Source of the DNA: Chitinolyticbacter albus
GTDB taxonomy: Bacteria > Pseudomonadota > Gammaproteobacteria > Burkholderiales > Chitinibacteraceae
Direction: 5' to 3'
Length of the DNA stretch: 24,000 nt
NCBI RefSeq assembly: GCF_024437655.1
Contig: NZ_JANBVF010000013.1
Coordinates: 127,548-151,547, forward strand
The notes beneath the pieces were generated by a model that was not told the origin of the DNA, did no database searches, and saw nothing but the letters and a program-made list of their open reading frames with translations. Positions within the stretch are counted from its first letter, which is position 1; every line of letters starts with the position of its first letter. Positions 1,637-15,593 of this stretch are shown in pieces. The position numbers were made by a program, and so were the translations under genes.

Positions 1637-1721
1637 GCGAGCGTGGCGGAATTGGTAGACGCACTGGATTTAGGTTCCAGCGCCGCAAGGCGTGAGAGTT
1701 CGAGTCTCTCCGCTCGCACCA
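1637..1721 (+). tRNA. tRNA-Leu, anticodon TAG (reads CUA/CUG), encoded CCA end
   Basis: The acceptor stem GCGAGCG pairs with CGCTCGC and is followed by ACCA. The D-arm is GGCGGAATTGGTAGACGC. The anticodon stem-loop is CTGGA-TTTAGGT-TCCAG. A long variable arm (GCGCCGCAAGGCGTG) is typical of class II Leu tRNAs. The T-arm is GAGAGTTCGAGTCTCTC. Confidence 0.95.
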
Positions 1722-7241: not shown

Positions 7242-7859
7242 ATGAGTAAAAATCAATTTCTTCAAAATCAGATGCTTAAGCGAGCATTGCTCGTCGGGGC
7301 ACTTGCCGCGACGGTGCTGATGAGTGGTTGTGCAAGCGTCTATGTCGATACAGCGACGCAGGACATTCAGCCAGGCGATATCAAGCCCGCAGCTCAACCG
7401 CAGCCGGTTCAGCTGAAGTTTGAGTTCCAAACCAAGGGTGCGCCAAATGCTGCGGCAACGTCCTTTCTCAAGGACCAGGTTGCCGAGCAGGTCAAGAACA
7501 GCGGGCTTTTTTCCAGCATTGAGGGCCAAGCTGGTGGTGCGCTGCTGAATATCGTATTGAACAACATCCCGTTGACTGACAACCCGGAAGGCAAGGGCTT
7601 TGTCACCGGATTGACCTTCGGTGTTGCCGGCAGCGTGGTGACGGATGGATATGTTTGTAAATTGACCTATTTGCCAGCAGGCGATGGCCAGCCAGTCAAC
7701 AAGGAAGTGCTGCACGCCATTCATACCACGATAGGCAACGCAAATCCGCCCGAGAATGCAGTGCCTTCGGAAAGTTTCGAGGCGGCGGCTCGCACCATGA
7801 CGCGTCAAGTCGTCGACAACGCCCTTAAAGACCTTTCTCAAGATCCGAATTTCAAATGA
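7242..7859 (+). CDS. Lipoprotein of unknown function
   Basis: Signal peptide with lipobox (ALAATVLMSGC|AS). A strong SD (AAGGGGGG) lies upstream of the ATG at 7242. Codon usage is AT-richer than the neighbours. Confidence 0.75.
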   Translation: MSKNQFLQNQMLKRALLVGALAATVLMSGCASVYVDTATQDIQPGDIKPAAQPQPVQLKFEFQTKGAPNAAATSFLKDQVAEQVKNSGLFSSIEGQAGGALLNIVLNNIPLTDNPEGKGFVTGLTFGVAGSVVTDGYVCKLTYLPAGDGQPVNKEVLHAIHTTIGNANPPENAVPSESFEAAARTMTRQVVDNALKDLSQDPNFK

Positions 7860-8446
7860 AAAAGCATATGAACATTAAAAATAAACTGTCGCTGCTGCTG
7901 GCATTGGCTTCACTTTTGCTTACGACCGGTTGTGCCCAACTCGTCATGGGCCCGCCACAGTCCAGCCTCGACAATACAATGCGACTTCGCGCGGCAAAAA
8001 TCAGCCCGGTCAATGTCGGTGAATTCACGCCCGACGCCAACCTGCCGGCCGGCAGGGACCAATCCTTTGCGCTGCGTGGGGCGAACAGCCTGAAAGCGCC
8101 GACCGATGGCTCGTTCACCCAATACCTGCGCGCATCGCTGGTTGAAGAGCTGAAGGCGGCCAATTCCTTCGATCCCGCTTCGACAACGACGATCACCGGT
8201 ACCTTGCTGGATACGGATCTTGATCCGGCCATAGGTACCGGTTCGGCCAAGCTTTCCGCGCGAGTGGTGGTGAGCAAGGATGGCGAGCAGCGCTTTGCCA
8301 AGGACTTTACCGCGCAATCCACCTGGGACTCGTCCTTTGTCGGCGCAGTGGCCATTCCGCTGGCGGCCAACAACTACGAAGGGCTGTTCCGCAAGTTCAT
8401 CAGCTTGTTGCTCGAGGATGAATCCTTCGTCGCGGCGCTGAAATAA
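7856..8446 (+). CDS. Lipoprotein of unknown function
   Basis: Signal peptide with lipobox (LLALASLLLTTGC|AQ). The ATGA overlap with the preceding lipoprotein gene suggests translational coupling. Codon usage is AT-richer than the neighbours. Confidence 0.75.
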   Translation: MKKHMNIKNKLSLLLALASLLLTTGCAQLVMGPPQSSLDNTMRLRAAKISPVNVGEFTPDANLPAGRDQSFALRGANSLKAPTDGSFTQYLRASLVEELKAANSFDPASTTTITGTLLDTDLDPAIGTGSAKLSARVVVSKDGEQRFAKDFTAQSTWDSSFVGAVAIPLAANNYEGLFRKFISLLLEDESFVAALK

Positions 8447-8480: not shown

Positions 8481-8512
8481 AAACCGGCGGGAGATCATCC
8501 CGCCGTTTTTTT
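8481..8512. terminator. Bidirectional rho-independent terminator between convergent operons
   Basis: AAAAACCGGCGGGA-GATCA-TCCCGCCGTTTTTTT: a GC stem flanked by an A-run and a T-run. It sits between the lipoprotein operon (+) and the end of the long minus-strand gene string. Confidence 0.85.
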
Positions 8513-8526
8513 GCGCCTGGGCGCAA

Positions 8527-9066
8527 TCATCGATCGCCATCTGCTGCATCGGATTGCTGGGCGGGTTGCAGCGCTTGTTGCAGCCATTGCTGATACGCAG
8601 GTCCCATGCCGTTCAGCAACTCGCCCCACTGGTTCGCATGTTCCTTCCATTCGCGCTGGCTTGCTTCCAGGTGCGAGAACAGCGTGAGTGCAAGCTCGGA
8701 AGACTTTCCCGACTGCGCGAGGTTGCCCAGCACGCGGCTCTGCTGGGTCTGCGCCAGCGCCAAGCTGGTCTGCCAGAGCTGGCACCACGCGCCGAAGATA
8801 CTCTGCTGCAAGTCACGCCATTGCGCGGTGGCATTGCTCAAACCATCCAGATCGGTATGTTGGGCCAGCGCGCGCCAGTTCGCATCGAACTGGGCTTCCT
8901 GCTCGCCATCCCAGGCCTGACGGGCGGCGATGCCTTGCCGCAACAGCTGTTTCCACGCTTCGGCATCCCAAATGGCGGGGGCCGCATGGGGGCCGAGCCA
9001 GCCCTGCCACCATTGCGTCGTGGCTTGTTGGGCGCGCAGATAGGGGTTGCGTGTGTTTGCATTCAT
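8527..9066 (-). CDS. Trp/Gln-rich helical protein of unknown function (possibly phasin/PhaE-like)
   Basis: 179 aa, very rich in W and Q (WWQGW, AWKQLL, QWRDLQQ, QLWQTSL, QQWLQQ). An AGGAG SD lies 7 nt upstream of the ATG. It begins 11 nt downstream of the esterase gene. The family assignment is a guess from composition and neighbourhood only. Confidence 0.6.
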   Translation of the reverse strand: MNANTRNPYLRAQQATTQWWQGWLGPHAAPAIWDAEAWKQLLRQGIAARQAWDGEQEAQFDANWRALAQHTDLDGLSNATAQWRDLQQSIFGAWCQLWQTSLALAQTQQSRVLGNLAQSGKSSELALTLFSHLEASQREWKEHANQWGELLNGMGPAYQQWLQQALQPAQQSDAADGDR

Positions 9067-9077
9067 GGTGGCTGCTC

Positions 9078-10136
9078 CTAGCGGGGGGTGGACAGGCGTT
9101 GCAGCATGGCCATCACCGCGGCCATCTGCGGCGCGGTTTTGCGGTAGTAATCGGGTTGAGCCGGGCTGGCGCTGGTGTAGCCCCAGAAATCCCAGCAGCC
9201 GTTCGGATTACGCCGTGGGTTGCTCTGGATCTGCGGGTAGAGCACGACAATGCGGTTGCTGTCGGCGAGCTCGTTATAGCCGGTGGTGCGAAAGAAGCGG
9301 TCGCCGAGCCGTGACGCTTCCTGGGTGCAGCCGTGGAACACTACGTGGACGCGGCAGGTTTCGCGGGCGCAGACCTTGGGCACGTAGGCAAAGCCAGTCG
9401 GGGCGAGGCCGTTGCTGGCGGTGCCTTGCTGGAATTCGCGCTGGTCGAACTCGAGCACCTGGCCGCCGGCATGCGCTGCTGGTGGTTTCAGGGCGCCGTA
9501 GATATGTCGCAGGATATCGTGCGACTGCATGAAGTTGCAGTTGTTGATATTGGGCGCGACATTTGCCGGGCAGGCCGGATCGGTGCTGTTGTTGGTCAGC
9601 AAGGCGTGGCCGGCGGCCAGGTTGTTGACGTATTTGAGCTGTGCCGCAGGCACGCCGGCTTCCTGGTAGAAGCGATGGGTCTGATCGACCACCTTGGTCC
9701 TGACGATGGTGTCGGCGGTGCCGCTGAACACGTAGATGCGCTGTTTCTTCAGGTTGACCGGATCATCGATCTGCCCGGCCGCGGCGAATTGCCGGGCGAA
9801 GGCGAGCGCTTGCTTGGCATCGGGGCCCGGGCCCAGTGGGTTCATGCAAAGGGTGGTGGCGGTGATGAGGTAAGGGTCGCCGCCGCTGCGATTGCCCAGG
9901 CCCGCGCAATAGAACGGCCCGCCAGCGACGATGCCCGCGCCGACCAACGTGCCGGAATAGGCGACGTTGAATTGCGCCGCCATAAAGGCGCCGGACGACA
10001 GGCCGGAGACGGAGGTCTGGGCGAGATCGGTGCCAAGGTGGGGTAGGCGCTCGGCCGCCAGGCCAGGCAGGGTCGCCACCAGCATCAATAGGGTGGTGGT
10101 AAGCCGCAGCAGGTAAATTACATACGTCATGGTCAT
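9078..10136 (-). CDS. Secreted esterase resembling an extracellular short-chain-length PHA/PHB depolymerase with type-2 catalytic domain
   Basis: 352 aa with an N-terminal signal peptide (LLMLVATLPGLAA). The lipase box GLSSGAFMA is close to the N-terminus and the oxyanion-type VHVVFHGC lies near the C-terminus, which is the type-2 order. The motif NGCWDFWGY is typical of PHB-depolymerase-family esterases. The start could be 10130 instead of 10136. Confidence 0.7.
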   Translation of the reverse strand: MTMTYVIYLLRLTTTLLMLVATLPGLAAERLPHLGTDLAQTSVSGLSSGAFMAAQFNVAYSGTLVGAGIVAGGPFYCAGLGNRSGGDPYLITATTLCMNPLGPGPDAKQALAFARQFAAAGQIDDPVNLKKQRIYVFSGTADTIVRTKVVDQTHRFYQEAGVPAAQLKYVNNLAAGHALLTNNSTDPACPANVAPNINNCNFMQSHDILRHIYGALKPPAAHAGGQVLEFDQREFQQGTASNGLAPTGFAYVPKVCARETCRVHVVFHGCTQEASRLGDRFFRTTGYNELADSNRIVVLYPQIQSNPRRNPNGCWDFWGYTSASPAQPDYYRKTAPQMAAVMAMLQRLSTPR

Positions 10137-10141
10137 TTCCT

Positions 10142-10561
10142 TCAGGGTTTGTTACCGCGTTGCAGCAGCTCGGTGATGCCGGCCCAGGCGACGAAAGCCA
10201 GGCCGATCTCGGTGGTGCCCACCGCGTAGGGCAAGCCGGCAAGTACGCCCATGGCGACCGCCTTGGCAAGTGCAATACCGTAGGCATCGCGTTCGATGCA
10301 GCGCTGTACCAGCAGCACGCTCAGGGCGGTGATGGCAAACACCAGCGCGCTGGCTCCGAGTATTACGCCGATGTGGGCGGCCCTGGGCAAGGGCTGGAGC
10401 AGTTGCGGCAGCAGCTCCTGCCAGGCGTGGTCGGTAGCCAGCATCACCAGCGCAGACAGCAGATGGATCGGGCTCTTGCGCAGGCCAGCATCCGCAGGGA
10501 CGGATGCGTTGTCCGGTATGGGGTCTGGCGGCGGTGGGGTGGAGTCGGAGGGCGGCGTCAC
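10142..10561 (-). CDS. Small integral membrane protein, unknown function
   Basis: 139 aa with a Pro-rich N-terminus followed by about 3 hydrophobic helices, and strong GC3 bias. The start is GTG with no SD, so it is uncertain. The gene ends 5 nt before the esterase start and begins 42 nt after rebB copy 1. Confidence 0.55.
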   Translation of the reverse strand: MTPPSDSTPPPPDPIPDNASVPADAGLRKSPIHLLSALVMLATDHAWQELLPQLLQPLPRAAHIGVILGASALVFAITALSVLLVQRCIERDAYGIALAKAVAMGVLAGLPYAVGTTEIGLAFVAWAGITELLQRGNKP

Positions 10562-10603: not shown

Positions 10604-10939
10604 TTACAGGCCGCTGCGGTTGCCGAACGAATTCAGCACGGTGAGCAGGCTCGTCAGGTTGTCGGCAACGCCGCCCTGAGCCACCTTCTCGGTCGCTGCC
10701 GCGCCGGCCATGGTGTTCATGCTGTAGATCTGCATCACGCCCATATTGGCCGCGGCCTGCGCCAGGGTGTTCTGCTGTTGCTGGGCCGACACGGCATTCT
10801 CGAACAAGATGCCCGTGGAGTGGGCCATGGTCTGATAGATCGAGCTCATGGCCATGGCCGGCGCTTCGGCCAATACCTTCACGTTGCTCTGGGTGACGGC
10901 ATCGGTGATCTGGTTGTTCACTGCGGTGGGAAAACTCAT
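10604..10939 (-). CDS. rebB: RebB-family R-body protein (killing-trait domain), tandem copy 1
   Basis: 111 aa: MSFPTAVNNQITDAVTQSNVKVLAEAPAMAMSSIYQTMAHSTGILFENAVSAQQQQNTL... The N-terminal signature VN.QITDAVTQ.NVKV.AEAPA.A...YQ..AHS.G matches what I recall of RebA/RebB/RebD and the P. aeruginosa RebP proteins. AGGAG SD present. Confidence 0.85.
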   Translation of the reverse strand: MSFPTAVNNQITDAVTQSNVKVLAEAPAMAMSSIYQTMAHSTGILFENAVSAQQQQNTLAQAAANMGVMQIYSMNTMAGAAATEKVAQGGVADNLTSLLTVLNSFGNRSGL

Positions 10940-10974: not shown

Positions 10975-11301
10975 TCAGCCGCGCGGGAAGCTGTTCATGA
11001 CGGAGAGCAGGCTGGTCAGGTTGTCCGCCACGCCGCCTTGCGACACCTTTTCGGTCGCGGCTGCATCGGCCATGGTGTCGACGCTGTAGATCTGCATCAC
11101 GCCGGTATTGGCAGCGGCTTGCGACAGCGTGTTCTGTTGTTGTTGGGCCGAGGTGGCGTTCTCGAACAGAATGCCGGTCGAATGCGCCATGGTCTGGAAC
11201 AACGAGGCGATGGCGACGGCCGGTGCTTCCGCCAGTACCTTGACGTTGGTCTGGGTGACGGCATCGGTGATCTGGTTGTTGACTGCGGTGGGGTAAGCCA
11301 T
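10975..11301 (-). CDS. rebB: RebB-family R-body protein, tandem copy 2
   Basis: 108 aa: MAYPTAVNNQITDAVTQTNVKVLAEAPAVAIASLFQTMAHSTGILFENATSAQQQQNTL... It is collinear with copies 1 and 3 over its full length. GGAGA SD present. Confidence 0.85.
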   Translation of the reverse strand: MAYPTAVNNQITDAVTQTNVKVLAEAPAVAIASLFQTMAHSTGILFENATSAQQQQNTLSQAAANTGVMQIYSVDTMADAAATEKVSQGGVADNLTSLLSVMNSFPRG

Positions 11302-11360: not shown

Positions 11361-11684
11361 TTAGCGGCGGAACGAGTTCAGCACGGTGAGCAGGCTGGTC
11401 AGATTGTCGGCGACGCCGGCCTGCGACACCTTTTCGGTGCCGGCAGCACCGGCCATGGTGTCCACGCTGTAGATCTGGATCACGCCCATATTGGTCGCGG
11501 CCTGGGTCAGCGTGTTCTGTTGCTGCTGGGCCGAGACCGCGTTCTCGAACAAAATGCCGGTGGAATGGGCCATCGATTGGTACAGCGAGCCCAGCGCCAC
11601 GGCCGGCGCTTCGCCCAGCACCTTGACGTTGGACTGCGTGACTGCATCGGTGATCTGGTCGTTGACGGAAGTCGGGAAAGCCAT
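11361..11684 (-). CDS. rebB: RebB-family R-body protein, tandem copy 3 (promoter-proximal)
   Basis: 107 aa: MAFPTSVNDQITDAVTQSNVKVLGEAPAVALGSLYQSMAHSTGILFENAVSAQQQQNTL... AGGAGA SD present. Preceded by the TTCACA-N15-CGTC motif. Confidence 0.85.
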   Translation of the reverse strand: MAFPTSVNDQITDAVTQSNVKVLGEAPAVALGSLYQSMAHSTGILFENAVSAQQQQNTLTQAATNMGVIQIYSVDTMAGAAGTEKVSQAGVADNLTSLLTVLNSFRR

Positions 11685-11733
11685 CTCGTTTCTCCTGGAA
11701 GGTAGGCACGGCAGTTGCCGTGCTGCTGATAGG

Positions 11734-11758
11734 GACGCTGCCGTAAGCCGGCTGTGAA
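11734..11758 (-). promoter_or_regulatory. Candidate ECF-sigma promoter P(rebB): TTCACA-N15-CGTC
   Basis: The minus strand reads acgTTCACAgccggcttacggcagCGTCcct. The putative -10 lies 50 nt upstream of the rebB copy 3 ATG. This is one of five identical-format motifs in the locus. Confidence 0.6.
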
Positions 11759-11760
11759 CG

Positions 11761-12306
11761 TCAGGATGCGGGGCCCGGATCGGTCGACGCGGGCGGTGTG
11801 GCAGCGTCCTGCTGCTTGGCCAGGCGGGCGATCACCGCCTGCAGCTCCTGCGACAGCGGCCCGAAATACTGGTTGAAGCACGCTTCAACCTCCTGCTTGG
11901 CAAGGCCGGCAAGCCGGTCGGCGATCTGCGATAGCACCATCTGCGCGCCACCCGGCTGCGCGCCGGGTTGCAGCGTGGATGGGCGCAGATCGGCCAGCGT
12001 GCGCGCGCCGTCCACCAGCTTCAGGATCGCCGCTTCCTCCTGGGCCTGCTGTTGCAGTGCCTGGCCGGTGCTGGCCTGTATCGTTTGCAGGGTGTCGCGC
12101 ACGCTGGCTGTCGCCCGGGCGCGGCTGGCATCGACGGTCTGGGCCGCCTGTTGCTTCAGTTGCGCCCCGGCGTCCTGCTGCGTCAAGCCTTGCTGGAAGG
12201 CGAGCAGGCGCTGCGCCTCCGCGCCTTCCAGCGGCCGCTGCAGCCAAGCCTCGGCCAGCTGTTGCAGGTCCGGATGCAATATCGGGGCGGGGCCGGCTTC
12301 AGACAT
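11761..12306 (-). CDS. Gln/Ala-rich helical (coiled-coil-like) protein, unknown function, R-body locus
   Basis: 181 aa from the ATG at 12306 (MSEAGPAPILHPDLQQLAEAWLQRPLEG...), with a GGAG SD. The start overlaps the stop of the upstream 73-aa ORF (ATGTCTGA). The longer track ORF (from 12447) has an implausible Arg/Trp-rich N-terminus. Confidence 0.6.
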   Translation of the reverse strand: MSEAGPAPILHPDLQQLAEAWLQRPLEGAEAQRLLAFQQGLTQQDAGAQLKQQAAQTVDASRARATASVRDTLQTIQASTGQALQQQAQEEAAILKLVDGARTLADLRPSTLQPGAQPGGAQMVLSQIADRLAGLAKQEVEACFNQYFGPLSQELQAVIARLAKQQDAATPPASTDPGPAS

Positions 12307-12520
12307 GCTGCGCTCCGCTCGTGGCTGCGTTGTCGTGCGGCAGTTCAGCCACGATGGGTGCCAGCGCGCTGCGTGCCGTTGCCAGCGCCTGGGCGAGACG
12401 GGCGTACTCGGCGTCGCTGCCGTCAGGCTCCGACTGGCCCAGTGCATGGGACCACTCGTTCAGGCACTGCGCCAGCAGCTGCTGCAGGCCGGCATAAAGG
12501 GAAACCAGATCGTCTTGCAT
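12299..12520 (-). CDS. Small helical protein (73 aa), unknown function, R-body locus
   Basis: MQDDLVSLYAGLQQLLAQCLNEWSHALGQSEPDGSDAEYARLAQALATARSALAPIVAELPHDNAATSGAQHV. An AGGAG SD lies 8 nt upstream of the ATG at 12520, and the TTCACA-N15-CGTC motif is 56 nt upstream. Confidence 0.55.
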   Translation of the reverse strand: MQDDLVSLYAGLQQLLAQCLNEWSHALGQSEPDGSDAEYARLAQALATARSALAPIVAELPHDNAATSGAQHV

Positions 12521-12575
12521 GGACACGCTCCTGATGGATGTCGGGGAATCCTGCGCAAGGCAGGGACATTGTCTG

Positions 12576-12600
12576 GACGTGGCGGCGGCCCATTTGTGAA
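12576..12600 (-). promoter_or_regulatory. Candidate ECF-sigma promoter: TTCACA-N15-CGTC
   Basis: The minus strand reads ctcTTCACAaatgggccgccgccaCGTCcag, upstream of the 73-aa/181-aa gene pair. Confidence 0.6.
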
Positions 12601-12879
12601 GAGGGCCCGTGTCAGCGGCGGAGATCGGCGCCGGCCGCATTTTCAGCAACGTCGACGGCCGTGTCCAAATGGGGGACGCTGCACTCCGGGCGCGTGGGGG
12701 TGATGACGCCCGGCCCGTCGTCCTGCTTGGGTGGCATGGCCGGTATCTGTAGGGGTACCGGCAGAGGGCTGTCGGCGGCAGCGGTACCAGCCAGCCTGAA
12801 ACTGCCGCGAGCGCGAGTTCCAAGCCGGCGGTGGTCAGGATTGGGGCGGGGCGTCATCGGCGTGAGGTACGCCGCAGGT

Positions 12880-13317
12880 TCAGTGTTCCTGTGTCAGGAA
12901 CAAGGTCTGCTCCATGGACCGCCGCTTCACCAGCCCTGGCAGCACCTTGCCGCCTGCCCGACACCACTTCGGGAATTCCTGCGCGGCCTCATCGTAGTGG
13001 CCGGCGTTCAATCGGCGTAGCAGCGTTGAATGCTGCAGGTTGGCCAGGCCCAGGTTGTAGGAAAAGCTCACGAGGGCATCAAACTGGTTCTGGTTGAGCG
13101 GCACCGTCACCGCGCGGCCTACACCGGCCTCGAAGCGGGTCAGGTCGCCCTGCAGCAGCGCGGCGGCCTGGATCTGGCTGATGCTGAGGCCGGGATGCAC
13201 ATCGCTGCCGGTATGGCCGTAGCCTATGGTCCAGATGCCGACCACATCCTGGTATGCGGTGAGGCGCAGGCCTTCGAAGCGCTCGATCAGCGCAATGCCA
13301 TTGGAGCTGGTTTGCAT
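12880..13317 (-). CDS. Phage-type lysozyme / muramidase, glycoside hydrolase family 24
   Basis: 145 aa: MQTSSNGIALIERFEGLRLTAYQDVVGIWTIGYGHTG...FDALVSFSYNLG...LPGLVKRR..E. It carries the canonical GH24 Glu (FEG), Asp (YQD) and Thr (WTIGYGHT) motifs. There is no signal peptide or SAR-type N-terminal helix. AAGGAAG SD present. Confidence 0.9.
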   Translation of the reverse strand: MQTSSNGIALIERFEGLRLTAYQDVVGIWTIGYGHTGSDVHPGLSISQIQAAALLQGDLTRFEAGVGRAVTVPLNQNQFDALVSFSYNLGLANLQHSTLLRRLNAGHYDEAAQEFPKWCRAGGKVLPGLVKRRSMEQTLFLTQEH

Positions 13318-13390
13318 GATCTTCCTTTCACTAAGGCCGGCACGTGCAAGCGGATGCGCCGCAGCCGCGTTGTCGTGCCGGTATCGGGGT

Positions 13391-13744
13391 TTACAGGAGA
13401 TGCAATACGCGAATCAGGCGTTGAATCGCTTCGGCGGCCTGGAACAAGCGAAAGCCGGGCGTATTCTGATAGGCCCTCACATCGTCGAAGGCGGCGTTAA
13501 ATGGCGCGCGCTGTGCAGGCCCATGCAGCACGACCGCCACGCCGCTCGGGGTCGTCAATCCGCTTACGTCCTCCCAGCCAAACGGATTTGCGCCGCCATG
13601 TTGCGTGATCCAGTCTTGCAAATTGCTGAAATACATTGCAAAACCCGCCAAATAGGGCTGCTGATAGCGCGGTGAGGAATTGGCCCAATTGGCAAGATTG
13701 GGGTGATTCATTTGCTGTGCGAGTTCTTGCGTGGTGAATGCCAT
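13391..13744 (-). CDS. Hypothetical protein (117 aa), between the papain-fold gene and the lysozyme gene
   Basis: MAFTTQELAQQMNHPNLANWANSSPRYQQPYLAGFAMYFSNLQDWITQHGG... GGAG SD present, good GC3. No TM segment and no motif I recognise. Confidence 0.55.
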   Translation of the reverse strand: MAFTTQELAQQMNHPNLANWANSSPRYQQPYLAGFAMYFSNLQDWITQHGGANPFGWEDVSGLTTPSGVAVVLHGPAQRAPFNAAFDDVRAYQNTPGFRLFQAAEAIQRLIRVLHLL

Positions 13745-13786
13745 CGGTGGCTCCGGTGTATCAGGGCTTGCACAGATGAACCACTG

Positions 13787-14431
13787 CTAAAGCTGGCACT
13801 GCACGCCGTCTTGCCAGAATCCGGCAAAGCGAAAACCGCTGCCCAGGCTGTCGCAGAACTCGGCCAGCTCATAGGGGGTCATCGCGGCTGGGCGTTGATT
13901 GAAGATCGACGGTGGTGGCGGATTGAGATTGGCGCTGATATAGAGGTTGCCGATTTCATAGCAATTGACCACGAATTGGGAGCAAAAAGACTGGTGCCCA
14001 ATTGCGACCGAATCGTTGATGCGCTGAATCAGGTCATTGCCGCCGGGGCCGGAGCGAATGACCGACAGCATGGCCTTGGTGCAGCTGTATTCACCGCAGA
14101 TATTGCTGTTTTCCCGGTCGTTGAAGAATTGCGACGCCGCGAAAGCCGCCGCGTCGCCAAGGGCCGTGTTGGTCGGCGTGAAGATCAGCCCGGAACGGGG
14201 CGGGCGCTCGTCGGCGAGATTGGTGGCCACGATGCCATCGCCCACACTTTCGATCACGGTATTGTTTCCCACCGCGATGGCGGCATGGACAATGGGGACG
14301 CGTGGCGCTTCGCCTCCCGAGAAGACTTTCATTTTCAGCCATTGGCCGGCGCGGATGAATACGCGGGGCAGTTTGGTCGAACGCTCATCGTTGATGGTTG
14401 CGACGCTGAATACGATATCACCGACATTCAT
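13787..14431 (-). CDS. Permuted papain-fold (NlpC/P60 superfamily, YiiX/peptidase C92-like) putative hydrolase
   Basis: 214 aa from the ATG at 14431 (GGAGAG SD 4 nt upstream; the track start at 14443 is a TTG). The motif order is GDIVF ... VHAAIAVG ... VIESV ... FCSQFVVNCY, with His before Cys as in circularly permuted NlpC/P60 enzymes. The family call rests on motif order only. Confidence 0.55.
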   Translation of the reverse strand: MNVGDIVFSVATINDERSTKLPRVFIRAGQWLKMKVFSGGEAPRVPIVHAAIAVGNNTVIESVGDGIVATNLADERPPRSGLIFTPTNTALGDAAAFAASQFFNDRENSNICGEYSCTKAMLSVIRSGPGGNDLIQRINDSVAIGHQSFCSQFVVNCYEIGNLYISANLNPPPPSIFNQRPAAMTPYELAEFCDSLGSGFRFAGFWQDGVQCQL

Positions 14432-14498
14432 GGTGCTCTCCAAAGGGCTATGGGGGTAAGGGTGGGTGCCGACGCAATGACCGGGCGCCCCTCATTAC

Positions 14499-14523
14499 AA
14501 CGAAACGAAAATCAAGTTGTGAA
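14499..14523 (-). promoter_or_regulatory. Candidate ECF-sigma promoter: TTCACA-N15-CGTT
   Basis: The minus strand reads tgtTTCACAacttgattttcgtttCGTTgta, 68 nt upstream of the papain-fold gene ATG. Confidence 0.6.
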
Positions 14524-14554
14524 ACACGGCATTCGCAAGCAAACGGCGCGCCCT

Positions 14555-15229
14555 TCAGCCCTTGCGATCGAGCAGGTTGTGATATTTGTCGATGCTCTGG
14601 TCGATCTTATCGAGCGCGAAATGCGCCGATTCCGCCTCGATTGCGCCCGCTGCTGCGGCGACGGCGGCCGCCGTGCCCATCAGCAGATCGGTCAGCAGCA
14701 CCCCGAGGGCATCCTCGGCCGCGCCCTTGAGGTCTTCCTTGGCGAACTTCTCGGTCATGTTCTTCAACAGCACGCTTTTGCTGGCGAGCGCCATCTTGCT
14801 GGCGCCGTCGAAGTAGGCCGCCGCGGACTGGGCGACAAGGCCGCTTGCCTGCGTGATCATCATGTTGGGTGCCACGGCGATCTGGCTGGCGGCGTAGGCC
14901 GCCGTCTCGGCATTGCTGATCTGTACCGCCTGCACGATTTGATCGTTCAGTGCATCGGTGGACGGGGGTAAGCCACCGGGGCCCTGGACCAGCTGCTGAT
15001 TGAGGCTGCTGAGCAAGGTCGGGGGCGGCTTGCTGGCAGGCGCCGCCGCGGGTGGCGAGGTGGCCGGGGTGGCCGGGGTGGCCGGGGTGGGCGTGGCATC
15101 CGGTGTCGCCGCCTCGGCCGCCGGAGCGTCTGCGGATGCCGGCGCGCCGGCCGTAGTGGCTACGGGCGCCACCGGGCTGGCGGGCTCCCGGGCGGCTTGC
15201 TTGCCGAACAGCATGTCTTTCAGGCTCAT
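14555..15229 (-). CDS. Pro/Ala/Thr-rich protein with a divergent Reb-like segment
   Basis: 224 aa. Residues about 10-75 are low-complexity (PATPATPATSPPAAAPASKPPP). After that, ALNDQIVQAVQISNAETAAYAASQIAVAPNMMITQASGL is collinear with the Reb signature AVNNQITDAVTQSNVKVLAEAPAMAMSSIYQTMAHSTGI. The similarity was judged by eye. Confidence 0.6.
   Translation of the reverse strand: MSLKDMLFGKQAAREPASPVAPVATTAGAPASADAPAAEAATPDATPTPATPATPATSPPAAAPASKPPPTLLSSLNQQLVQGPGGLPPSTDALNDQIVQAVQISNAETAAYAASQIAVAPNMMITQASGLVAQSAAAYFDGASKMALASKSVLLKNMTEKFAKEDLKGAAEDALGVLLTDLLMGTAAAVAAAAGAIEAESAHFALDKIDQSIDKYHNLLDRKG
15061..15087. repeat. Perfect 3 x 9-bp tandem repeat (tggccgggg), with degenerate copies either side
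   Basis: tggccgggg occurs at 15061, 15070 and 15079. It encodes the PATPATPAT tract of the 224-aa protein on the minus strand. Confidence 0.9.
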
Positions 15230-15276: not shown

Positions 15277-15513
15277 TCAGGTCTTGTCGCCGACCGAGAG
15301 AATCATGGTCACGGCCTTGGAAACGACGGCGCTGGAAATCTGGTTCAGCGCCTGTTGGCTGTGTATCGCGTTCTGTAGCGACAGGCCGGCCGAGTGGCTG
15401 GCGATCTGATACAGCGCAGCCATGGCCTGGGCCGGCGCCTCTGCCACGACCTTCACATTGGTCTGGGTGACTGCATCGGTGATCTGTGCGTTGACGGGCG
15501 TGTTGTCTGCCAT
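15277..15513 (-). CDS. Short RebB-family R-body protein (78 aa; RebD-sized paralog)
   Basis: MADNTPVNAQITDAVTQTNVKVVAEAPAQAMAALYQIASHSAGLSLQNAIHSQQALNQISSAVVSKAVTMILSVGDKT. It has the full Reb N-terminal signature and a GAGGAGAGAGG SD. The track ORF (15277..15879) is an over-extension across the promoter region and the end of the sigma-factor gene. Confidence 0.85.
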   Translation of the reverse strand: MADNTPVNAQITDAVTQTNVKVVAEAPAQAMAALYQIASHSAGLSLQNAIHSQQALNQISSAVVSKAVTMILSVGDKT

Positions 15514-15593
15514 GAACCTCTCTCCTCGGTGGTTGCGGCCGGTTGAACGACTGGTGCGGGCCCGGTGGCGAGGGCGCCGCACATGCAGACAGG

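Follow-up and report, generated by a model that had tools for sequence, protein, structure and literature searches.

The closest described relative of the locus examined here is the R-body (reb) gene cluster of Pseudomonas aeruginosa PA14, in which the genes follow the order rcgA-fecI2-rebD-rapA-...-rebP1P2, both RcgA and the extracytoplasmic function (ECF) sigma factor FecI2 are needed for rebP1 expression, and the rebP1 promoter is on in 0.26% of cells; its authors put forward a 'kamikaze' subpopulation model (PMC8322103). How R-body producers open, and what such 'kamikaze' delivery needs besides the ribbon, is an open point in R-body biology. We analyzed a stretch of 24,000 nt from Chitinolyticbacter albus (NZ_JANBVF010000013.1, positions 127,548-151,547; assembly GCF_024437655.1; hereafter the window), in which a single reb locus spans the minus strand from about 18543 to 8485 and includes a gene for a phage-type GH24 lysozyme of 145 residues (13317..12880). 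The gene order of PA14 is matched by the window, with a CRP-like regulator and an ECF sigma factor accompanied by RebD-like, RapA-like and RebB-family genes in like order (PMC8322103), and Raymann et al. described the same layout as 'Group 2' synteny of reb loci (PMC3583457); having several RebB-family genes together with both regulators and a RapA-like gene, the locus fits the R-body Group 2 or PA14 type. It differs from the PA14-type Pseudomonas clusters examined in that no lysozyme, no counterpart of a small membrane protein that we call mem139 and no counterpart of a secreted esterase (est352) were reported or found in the latter, some of which carry another gene, p214, instead. No lysozyme is mentioned in surveys of reb loci from 2013 and 2026 (PMC3583457, PMC13430693), in the PA14 work (PMC8322103) or in a study of Azorhizobium (PMC5527310), and the 2013 survey found no phage similarity near reb loci (PMC3583457). 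As far as titles and abstracts tell, the papers in which a full-text search found both 'R-bodies' and 'endolysin' are likewise not about lysis genes of reb loci.

The lysozyme itself has its nearest counterparts in the P22/lambda-like holin-endolysin-spanin cassettes of phages, represented here by the prophage loci L018 and L019, with which it shares the GH24 family, 68-71% identity, the E-D-T catalytic pattern, solubility and a presumed dependence on a membrane lesion. Unlike these cassettes, reb loci, namely that of the window and 80 others that we fetched from species-representative genomes with a Reb alignment as query and searched with every protein of the window, carry neither a holin nor Rz and Rz1, and the lysozyme gene is not part of a phage late operon but stands among R-body genes, behind a promoter of the ECF type. 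Co-option of an endolysin for particle release is already known: for tailocins (pyocins) and gene transfer agents (GTAs), a phage-type endolysin has been co-opted, bursts are confined to a subpopulation, and a large intracellular particle is freed. Those lysis modules keep a dedicated holin beside the endolysin, unlike the window, and a holin-less, spanin-less endolysin in an R-body regulon is a variant of this principle. On balance, and with some reserve, we propose that a phage endolysin has been domesticated into the R-body regulon without its phage partners and probably lets R-body-making cells burst.

Judged from its sequence, the protein is a soluble GH24 endolysin of the T4/P22 type with intact catalytic residues. 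It covers positions 2-125 of the 125-position Pfam profile Phage_lysozyme (PF00959; E=4e-52, 176 bits against a cut-off of 22.3) and matches a PHROG endolysin (E=4e-64), whereas its score against the NCBIfam model of the GTA endolysin BgtA (165 bits against a cut-off of 315) shows that it is not that equivalog. The catalytic pattern E15-x8-D24-x5-T30 is readable in the translation, and Glu-x8-Asp-x5-Thr is kept in 10 of 10 inspected reb-locus orthologues, counted without a metagenome copy (L178); the ATG is preceded, at a distance of 5 nt, by the Shine-Dalgarno sequence AAGGAAG. The protein has no hydrophobic segment and hence neither a signal peptide nor a signal-arrest-release (SAR) anchor, as an earlier annotation of this DNA made from the letters alone (the sequence-only reading) had noted, and every reb-locus orthologue begins directly with the catalytic domain. 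That reading had also seen no holin next to the gene, and indeed no open reading frame (ORF) of at least 25 aa with a membrane-like segment occurs in 12450..14560, while the 359 bp downstream of the lysozyme, inspected for spanins, hold no lipoprotein or membrane-protein ORF.

Relatives of the lysozyme are abundant on viral contigs, at up to 71% identity. Neighbour joining of 92 sequences placed the 12 reb-locus lysozymes in one clade with only two prophage lysozymes, those of L018 and L019, and these prophages have a canonical cassette with a holin before the endolysin and Rz/Rz1 behind it. In L018, the stop of a small two-segment holin gene overlaps the lysozyme start, and the lysozyme gene is followed by one for an Rz-like protein, within which lies a gene for an Rz1-like lipoprotein. 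Because neither the window nor any of the 80 reb loci shows a trace of this holin, Rz or Rz1, reb loci have kept only the endolysin of the cassette. Its G+C content at third codon positions (GC3) is 0.82, compared with 0.81-0.87 in the Reb genes, 0.73 in p214 and 0.64, the lowest value in the locus, in the gene for a 117-aa protein (u117) that lies between p214 and the lysozyme.

Lysozyme orthologues with 64-72% identity were found in 10 of the 80 reb loci, from six betaproteobacterial genera, as well as on one metagenome contig (L178). Two of these loci are from Paraburkholderia tropica, four from Chromobacterium species, and one each from Trinickia terrae, Chitinimonas sp., Rivihabitans pingtungensis and a Pseudogulbenkiania metagenome-assembled genome. 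Where the gene order could be resolved, g181 and the reb genes come next after the lysozyme, directly so in most loci and with an intervening regulator gene in the Rivihabitans locus (L113). The closest reb-locus lysozyme (72%) is that of Pseudogulbenkiania (L123), whose order rebD-rapA-lysozyme-g181-rebs-mem139-est352 is the arrangement of the window minus p214 and u117. Eight of the 10 lysozyme loci, like L178, have mem139, est352 and usually g179 just upstream of the lysozyme, so that the usual block reads mem139-est352-g179-lysozyme-(g73)-g181-reb; in the window, mem139 belongs to a separate transcription unit, after the reb genes. Est352 and mem139 occur together in 9 reb loci, and g179 homologues stand after est352 and before the lysozyme slot in L099, L102, L103, L105, L106 and L137, the last of which has no lysozyme.

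The recurrent neighbor mem139 (10561..10142), a protein of 139 aa, has one strong membrane segment (residues 66-84), two or three weaker hydrophobic stretches, a hydrophilic N-terminus and a short charged C-terminus, and thus the small size, membrane segment and charged tail looked for in holins. The sequence-only reading had singled it out as the only small membrane protein of the block, which holds among the 11 locus proteins that we scanned (a set made up without the Reb proteins, the sigma factor and the CRP-like regulator), and its hint that this protein matters gains weight from the related loci, in most of which mem139 heads the operon that ends in the lysozyme. No Pfam family matches mem139, its PHROG holin match reaches only E=0.5, and no relatives were found on viral contigs; homologues were found only in reb loci, including the two recovered by a metagenome scan, and a word-index protein search returned only the window's own protein. 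From these features, mem139 is a candidate for the passage by which the lysozyme could cross the inner membrane. The esterase est352 (10136..9078) carries a signal peptide, with an N-terminal hydrophobic segment, and a GLSSG lipase box, and scores 391 bits, against a cut-off of 280, with the NCBIfam catalytic domain of type-2 short-chain-length polyhydroxyalkanoate (PHA) depolymerases. This polyhydroxybutyrate (PHB)-type esterase and g179 (9066..8527), a Gln/Trp-rich protein whose gene closes the unit, would be co-transcribed behind the reb genes of the window; the esterase recurs in 9 related reb loci and g179 in 6.

The genes of the locus are linked by a promoter class whose shared core, TTCACA-N15-CGT, was recognized on inspection of the intergenic DNA. 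Five copies are present in the window, where 0.11 would be expected, at 18543, 15618, 14523, 12600 and 11758, all on the minus strand, intergenic and upstream of genes. Across 81 reb loci of other organisms (1.46 Mb), the gene strand carries 114 copies of the motif and the opposite strand 4, where chance would give about 2.8 on each; the class consensus reads TTCACA-N15-CGTYC, with CGTYC as the extended -10 element. The motif is also shared with Pseudomonas reb loci, and its position ahead of the reb genes, about 75-120 bp upstream, is conserved in related loci. This ECF promoter type is real: the motif is strand-specific, lies upstream of member genes and is kept across taxa. The sigma factor encoded in the reb loci would be the one that drives TTCACA-N15-CGTYC promoters; sigma factors adjoining RebB genes form group ECF237 (PMC7826278), and that of the window is of this kind and a putative member. 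The lysozyme is downstream of a motif-bearing promoter in all 10 loci: the motif stands immediately ahead of the lysozyme gene itself in L100 and L106, immediately ahead of the mem139 operon in L098 and L107, and upstream of rebD-rapA in L123. The earlier placement of the lysozyme in an R-body regulon is thus borne out by the reb-type ECF promoter upstream of it here and by its similar position in reb loci of six genera. A scan for sigma-70 promoters and terminators gave counts at the level of shuffled sequence, and only a terminator-like hairpin with a T run at 8485..8505, which ends the unit after g179, looks meaningful.

Read along the minus strand, the site at 15593..15618 precedes a short RebB-family gene that is RebD-like (15513..15277) and g224 (15229..14555), a RapA-like R-body-associated protein that is about 60% identical to a 220-aa Pseudomonas protein at the rapA position and has matches in 64 of the 80 reb loci. 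The site at 14498..14523, TTCACA-N15-CGTTG, lies upstream of p214 (14431..13787), a predicted permuted papain-fold (YaeF/YiiX-like) enzyme, u117 (13744..13391), a small soluble helical protein, and the lysozyme, with a GC-rich hairpin at 13337..13381 in the gap before the latter. The third site of this series (12575..12600) is followed by g73 and g181 (12520..11761), and the fourth (11733..11758) by three RebB-family structural genes (11361..11684, 10975..11301 and 10604..10939; PF11747, E=1e-27 to 2e-29) and then by mem139, est352 and g179. Ahead of all these lie the genes for the CRP/FNR-type regulator (17060..16326; cNMP-binding and HTH_Crp_2 domains), the counterpart of RcgA, and for the ECF sigma factor (16226..15630; sigma-70 regions 2 and 4), the counterpart of FecI2; the sigma factor and the regulator are 47% and 43% identical to the pair in Pseudomonas reb clusters.

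In many related loci (L098:2110, L107:1959, L123:6365, L003:7429 and others), the motif is also found upstream of the CRP-like regulator gene. Such a site would create positive feedback, which could underlie the stochastic on/off expression seen in PA14; upstream of the regulator gene of the window itself, no such motif is present.

How would an endolysin devoid of its phage partners serve an R-body producer? In the mechanism that we favor, the endolysin would have been taken from a phage holin-endolysin-spanin cassette, kept alone, and retained in betaproteobacterial reb loci under reb promoters. The enzyme would be made only in the R-body-producing subpopulation and build up harmlessly in the cytoplasm until a breach of the inner membrane, by the extending R-body or by mem139, gives it access to murein; removal of the wall, which would otherwise contain the R-body, would then let the cell burst and release the R-body together with its contents. 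In this scheme, p214 and u117 would be separate passengers, unrelated to lysis. Experimental background for the role of the wall comes from Polka and Silver, who showed that R-body extension lysed E. coli spheroplasts made with lysozyme (36% intact) and not walled cells (95% intact) (10.1101/029587). Because only the spheroplasts burst, the wall is a barrier that a co-expressed muramidase would remove (10.1101/029587), and an endolysin in the regulon would also explain why R-bodies fail to burst walled E. coli. The programmed self-lysis of R-body cells suggested by the sequence-only reading is therefore plausible, inasmuch as the wall contains R-bodies in E. coli, although not by way of the three-gene module that it had in mind. 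A conserved endolysin on a reb promoter offers a concrete, deletable gene for testing the self-lysis model, and for the use of R-bodies as membrane-breaking devices it suggests a natural set of parts, the reb genes plus the endolysin.

A number of observations weigh against this proposal. The lysozyme is missing from 70 of the 80 reb loci and is hence not needed for R-body function in general; moreover, the loci that have it come from related lineages, so that their counts are not independent events and overstate the number of such events. In the Chromobacterium vaccinii locus L137 (6804..9016), mem139-est352-g179 comes without a lysozyme, in Rivihabitans L113 the lysozyme comes without mem139, and since each carries just one of the two, their pairing is not obligatory. 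The spheroplast experiment was made with Caedibacter R-bodies in E. coli and not with the present system (10.1101/029587), and the expression and activity of the lysozyme at this locus are predictions. The window lysozyme has no promoter of its own, the site at 14523 departs from the -10 consensus at the last base of its CGTTG, and between u117 and the lysozyme lies the hairpin at 13337..13381 (-31.4 kcal/mol, z-score -1.95), which has no U tract and is not a canonical intrinsic terminator, and which casts some doubt on read-through from 14523. At the lysozyme slot of L137, only about 140 bp are found and g181 and the reb genes follow directly after the block, making this locus a natural lysozyme-less variant or a case of loss.

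As to what opens the inner membrane, we rank the R-body itself as the best explanation and mem139 as its main rival. In its most elaborate form, which we offer as a tentative possibility and do not expect to hold in every part, the first of these amounts to holin-free lysis: an acid or ionic trigger would make the ribbon unroll and tear the inner membrane, thereby freeing the pre-loaded endolysin onto the wall, with est352 and mem139 in place of spanins at the outer layers, so that a mechanically triggered breach of three layers would arise from one domesticated phage gene and non-phage parts. Were mem139 instead the holin of the lysozyme, with est352 and g179 helping to breach the outer layers, release would be timed independently of R-body extension. 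The contiguity of mem139, est352, g179 and lysozyme in most related loci and on the metagenome contig speaks for such a cassette, as do the ECF motif directly upstream of mem139 in L098 and L107, the holin-like build of the protein and the signal peptide of the esterase. Yet mem139 is unlike any holin family and without viral-contig relatives, two genes separate it from the lysozyme whereas a phage holin adjoins its endolysin, L137 and L113 each dispense with one of the two, and the window places mem139 behind the reb genes, in another transcription unit than the lysozyme; taken together, we consider this alternative rather unlikely. That the lysozyme is only an inert remnant of a decayed prophage, present in the locus by chance, would agree with its many phage relatives and with the loss of holin and spanin, and deserves next to no credence: the ORFs are intact, with the catalytic triad, at a similar position in six genera (60-86% identity), the orthologues lie downstream of reb promoters, the GC3 of the lysozyme matches that of the reb genes, and no other phage genes are present.

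Two further explanations concern the hydrolases around the lysozyme. The lysozyme, p214, patatin-like lipases and the esterase might form a payload that acts on a host, predator or competitor after rupture by the R-body rather than on the producer. R-bodies are indeed thought to deliver unidentified toxins (PMC8322103, PMC13189344), relatives of u117 adjoin toxin genes in type VI secretion system (T6SS) clusters, and what lies between rapA and the reb genes varies, with different hydrolases in different lineages: across 64 loci, this slot holds 44 protein clusters, among which the only recognizable enzymes are patatin-like phospholipases, the lysozyme and the PHB-type esterase. A murein hydrolase, however, has no target in eukaryotic hosts and would be blocked from outside by the outer membrane of Gram-negative competitors, and the closest relatives of this one are phage endolysins that lyse from within, so that we judge a payload role improbable. 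Still less credible is a single autolysis operon of p214, u117 and lysozyme that would combine the action of two wall hydrolases with that of an accessory protein. The observation behind this idea, made in the sequence-only reading, stands in full: all elements lie on the minus strand, and one promoter-like site is followed by three co-oriented genes with gaps of 42 and 73 bp. In favor of such an operon, p214 also has a papain/NlpC-P60-type triad and top fold matches that include the autolysins LytE and Acd24020. The earlier interpretation is supported only in part, as the three genes are never together elsewhere; the 10 lysozyme loci lack p214 and u117, the 7 p214 loci lack the lysozyme, and u117 occurs in 0 of 80. 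The closest relatives of p214 stand alone and those of u117 lie in T6SS clusters and other unrelated contexts, p214 has neither a signal peptide nor a wall-binding domain and its fold matches are non-significant, and the GC3 values of p214 and u117 are unlike that of the lysozyme. Because the L123 order lacks both genes and their GC3 is lower, p214, u117 and their promoter look, from these sequence comparisons, like an insertion between rapA and the lysozyme. The object of interest is accordingly not the trio but a holin-less endolysin in the R-body regulon, with mem139, the secreted esterase and g179 as recurrent partners.

Patatin-like phospholipase genes follow rapA in the two P. tropica loci (L098:4644-6059 and L099:4559-5974) and in Rivihabitans (L113:5109-6374), where the gene lies directly upstream of the lysozyme.

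For p214, the ATG at 14431 fits the N-termini of the homologues, although the ORF list also offers a TTG at 14443. No family match above threshold was obtained, and its family amounts to 14 clusters in 5.8 billion proteins, in whose 14 homologues His49, Glu61 and Cys150 (in FCSQFV) are invariant. This is the permuted His-polar-Cys order shared by YaeF/YiiX (Peptidase_C92) and LRAT/PLAAT proteins, and in the predicted structure C150 lies at the start of a helix (150-165). All 14 family members match the NCBIfam model of the permuted papain YaeF (best E=6.7e-6) and 13 of 14 match Pfam Peptidase_C92 (best E=0.0027), every one of these matches being sub-threshold, with p214 itself at 17 bits against a YaeF cut-off of 279. 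The AlphaFold model (pLDDT, the predicted local confidence score, 72) has NlpC/P60 autolysins, PPPDE1 and PLAAT/LRAT proteins as its top fold matches, every E-value being at least 0.2, and PLAAT3/HRASLS3 align to it over about 110 columns with target-normalised TM-scores of 0.47-0.50 and non-significant E-values. Besides these sub-threshold matches, p214 differs from YaeF/YiiX and LRAT/PLAAT proteins in having no lipoprotein or signal sequence and in forming its own small family. No membrane segment, export signal, or SH3b or LysM wall-binding domain was found in it. A classical autolysin was considered and rejected, as sequence and profile searches of the PDB gave noise and the fold matches were non-significant. 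The earlier description as a permuted NlpC/P60-like papain fold is thus a fair one, whereas that as a wall hydrolase finds no backing in an export signal or wall-binding domain. We predict p214 to be a cytoplasmic, remote YaeF/YiiX-type permuted papain-fold enzyme; it is not established as a wall hydrolase, the YaeF/YiiX family has no established peptidoglycan substrate, and p214 could act on a lipid, an amide or a Reb protein.

Outside the window, p214 occurs in 7 of the 80 reb loci, from Burkholderia sp. TSV86 and six Pseudomonas, none of which has a lysozyme, and the Pseudomonas p214 loci follow the order rcgA-sigma-rebD-rapA-p214-g181-like-rebP-rebP. Its closest relatives are stand-alone genes. 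One of these, in Chromobacterium sp. ATCC 53434 (L001), is 69% identical, has no reb gene within 10 kb and carries, 77 bp ahead of its ATG, an exact TTCACA-N15-CGT (L001:9924-9947); in another two of the homologues that stand alone, the motif is present with one mismatch. A 246-aa gene beside the Chromobacterium p214 was tried as a RapA-like candidate and rejected, being an unrelated secreted protein. To judge from these motif occurrences, p214 is an independent member of the reb sigma regulon, which seems to include unlinked genes, and TTCACA-N15-CGTYC can be used to find such unlinked members genome-wide, the stand-alone Chromobacterium p214 being an example.

The protein u117 has no family in Pfam, NCBIfam, PHROGs or PADLOC and no membrane segment. 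Its model is confident (pLDDT 95) and all-helical, with five helices, and found no match in the PDB or BFVD; the suggestion that structure prediction might reveal a holin or spanin fold thus came out negative, and both candidate roles were rejected. Absent from all 80 reb loci, u117 has only 23 relatives in a profile search of 1.84 billion representatives, nearly all of them stand-alone. A lysozyme inhibitor was considered as well, and finds no backing in gene neighborhoods: no relative was seen beside a lysozyme in 80 phage loci or in the other contexts encountered. In two Pseudomonas species (L006:10001-10363 and L008:10001-10357), u117 homologues with about 60% identity lie directly after clpV in T6SS clusters and precede variable genes (an OTT_1508 deaminase, or proteins of 261 and 349 aa) and vgrG; u117 may thus be an adaptor or a marker of where a toxin cassette begins or ends, and further homologues occur in unrelated contexts. 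In P0050 (371 aa), the first ~46 residues are near-identical to the T6SS-linked homologues, and the C-terminal part, about 325 aa long, is unrelated to them, which looks like a cassette replacement or a fusion.

At the upstream end of the locus, two tandem DUF2589 proteins (18470..17187, minus strand) are encoded behind the ECF-type motif at 18518..18543, and have weak homologues in three Chromobacterium reb loci. Farther out, a HipA-family kinase gene (PF07804, PF13657; 18965..20535, plus strand), whose start is overlapped by a small ORF ahead of it, probably forms with the latter a hipBA toxin-antitoxin pair that flanks the reb locus, and no defence-system family was found among eight locus proteins scanned for anti-phage defence. 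Convergent with the end of the reb unit, two tandem lipoprotein genes (7242..8446, plus strand; lipoboxes LMSGC and LTTGC), to which no family could be assigned, lie in a patch with a G+C content of 0.52. About 7 kb past the unit end, the window carries a tRNA-Leu gene (1637..1721, plus strand).

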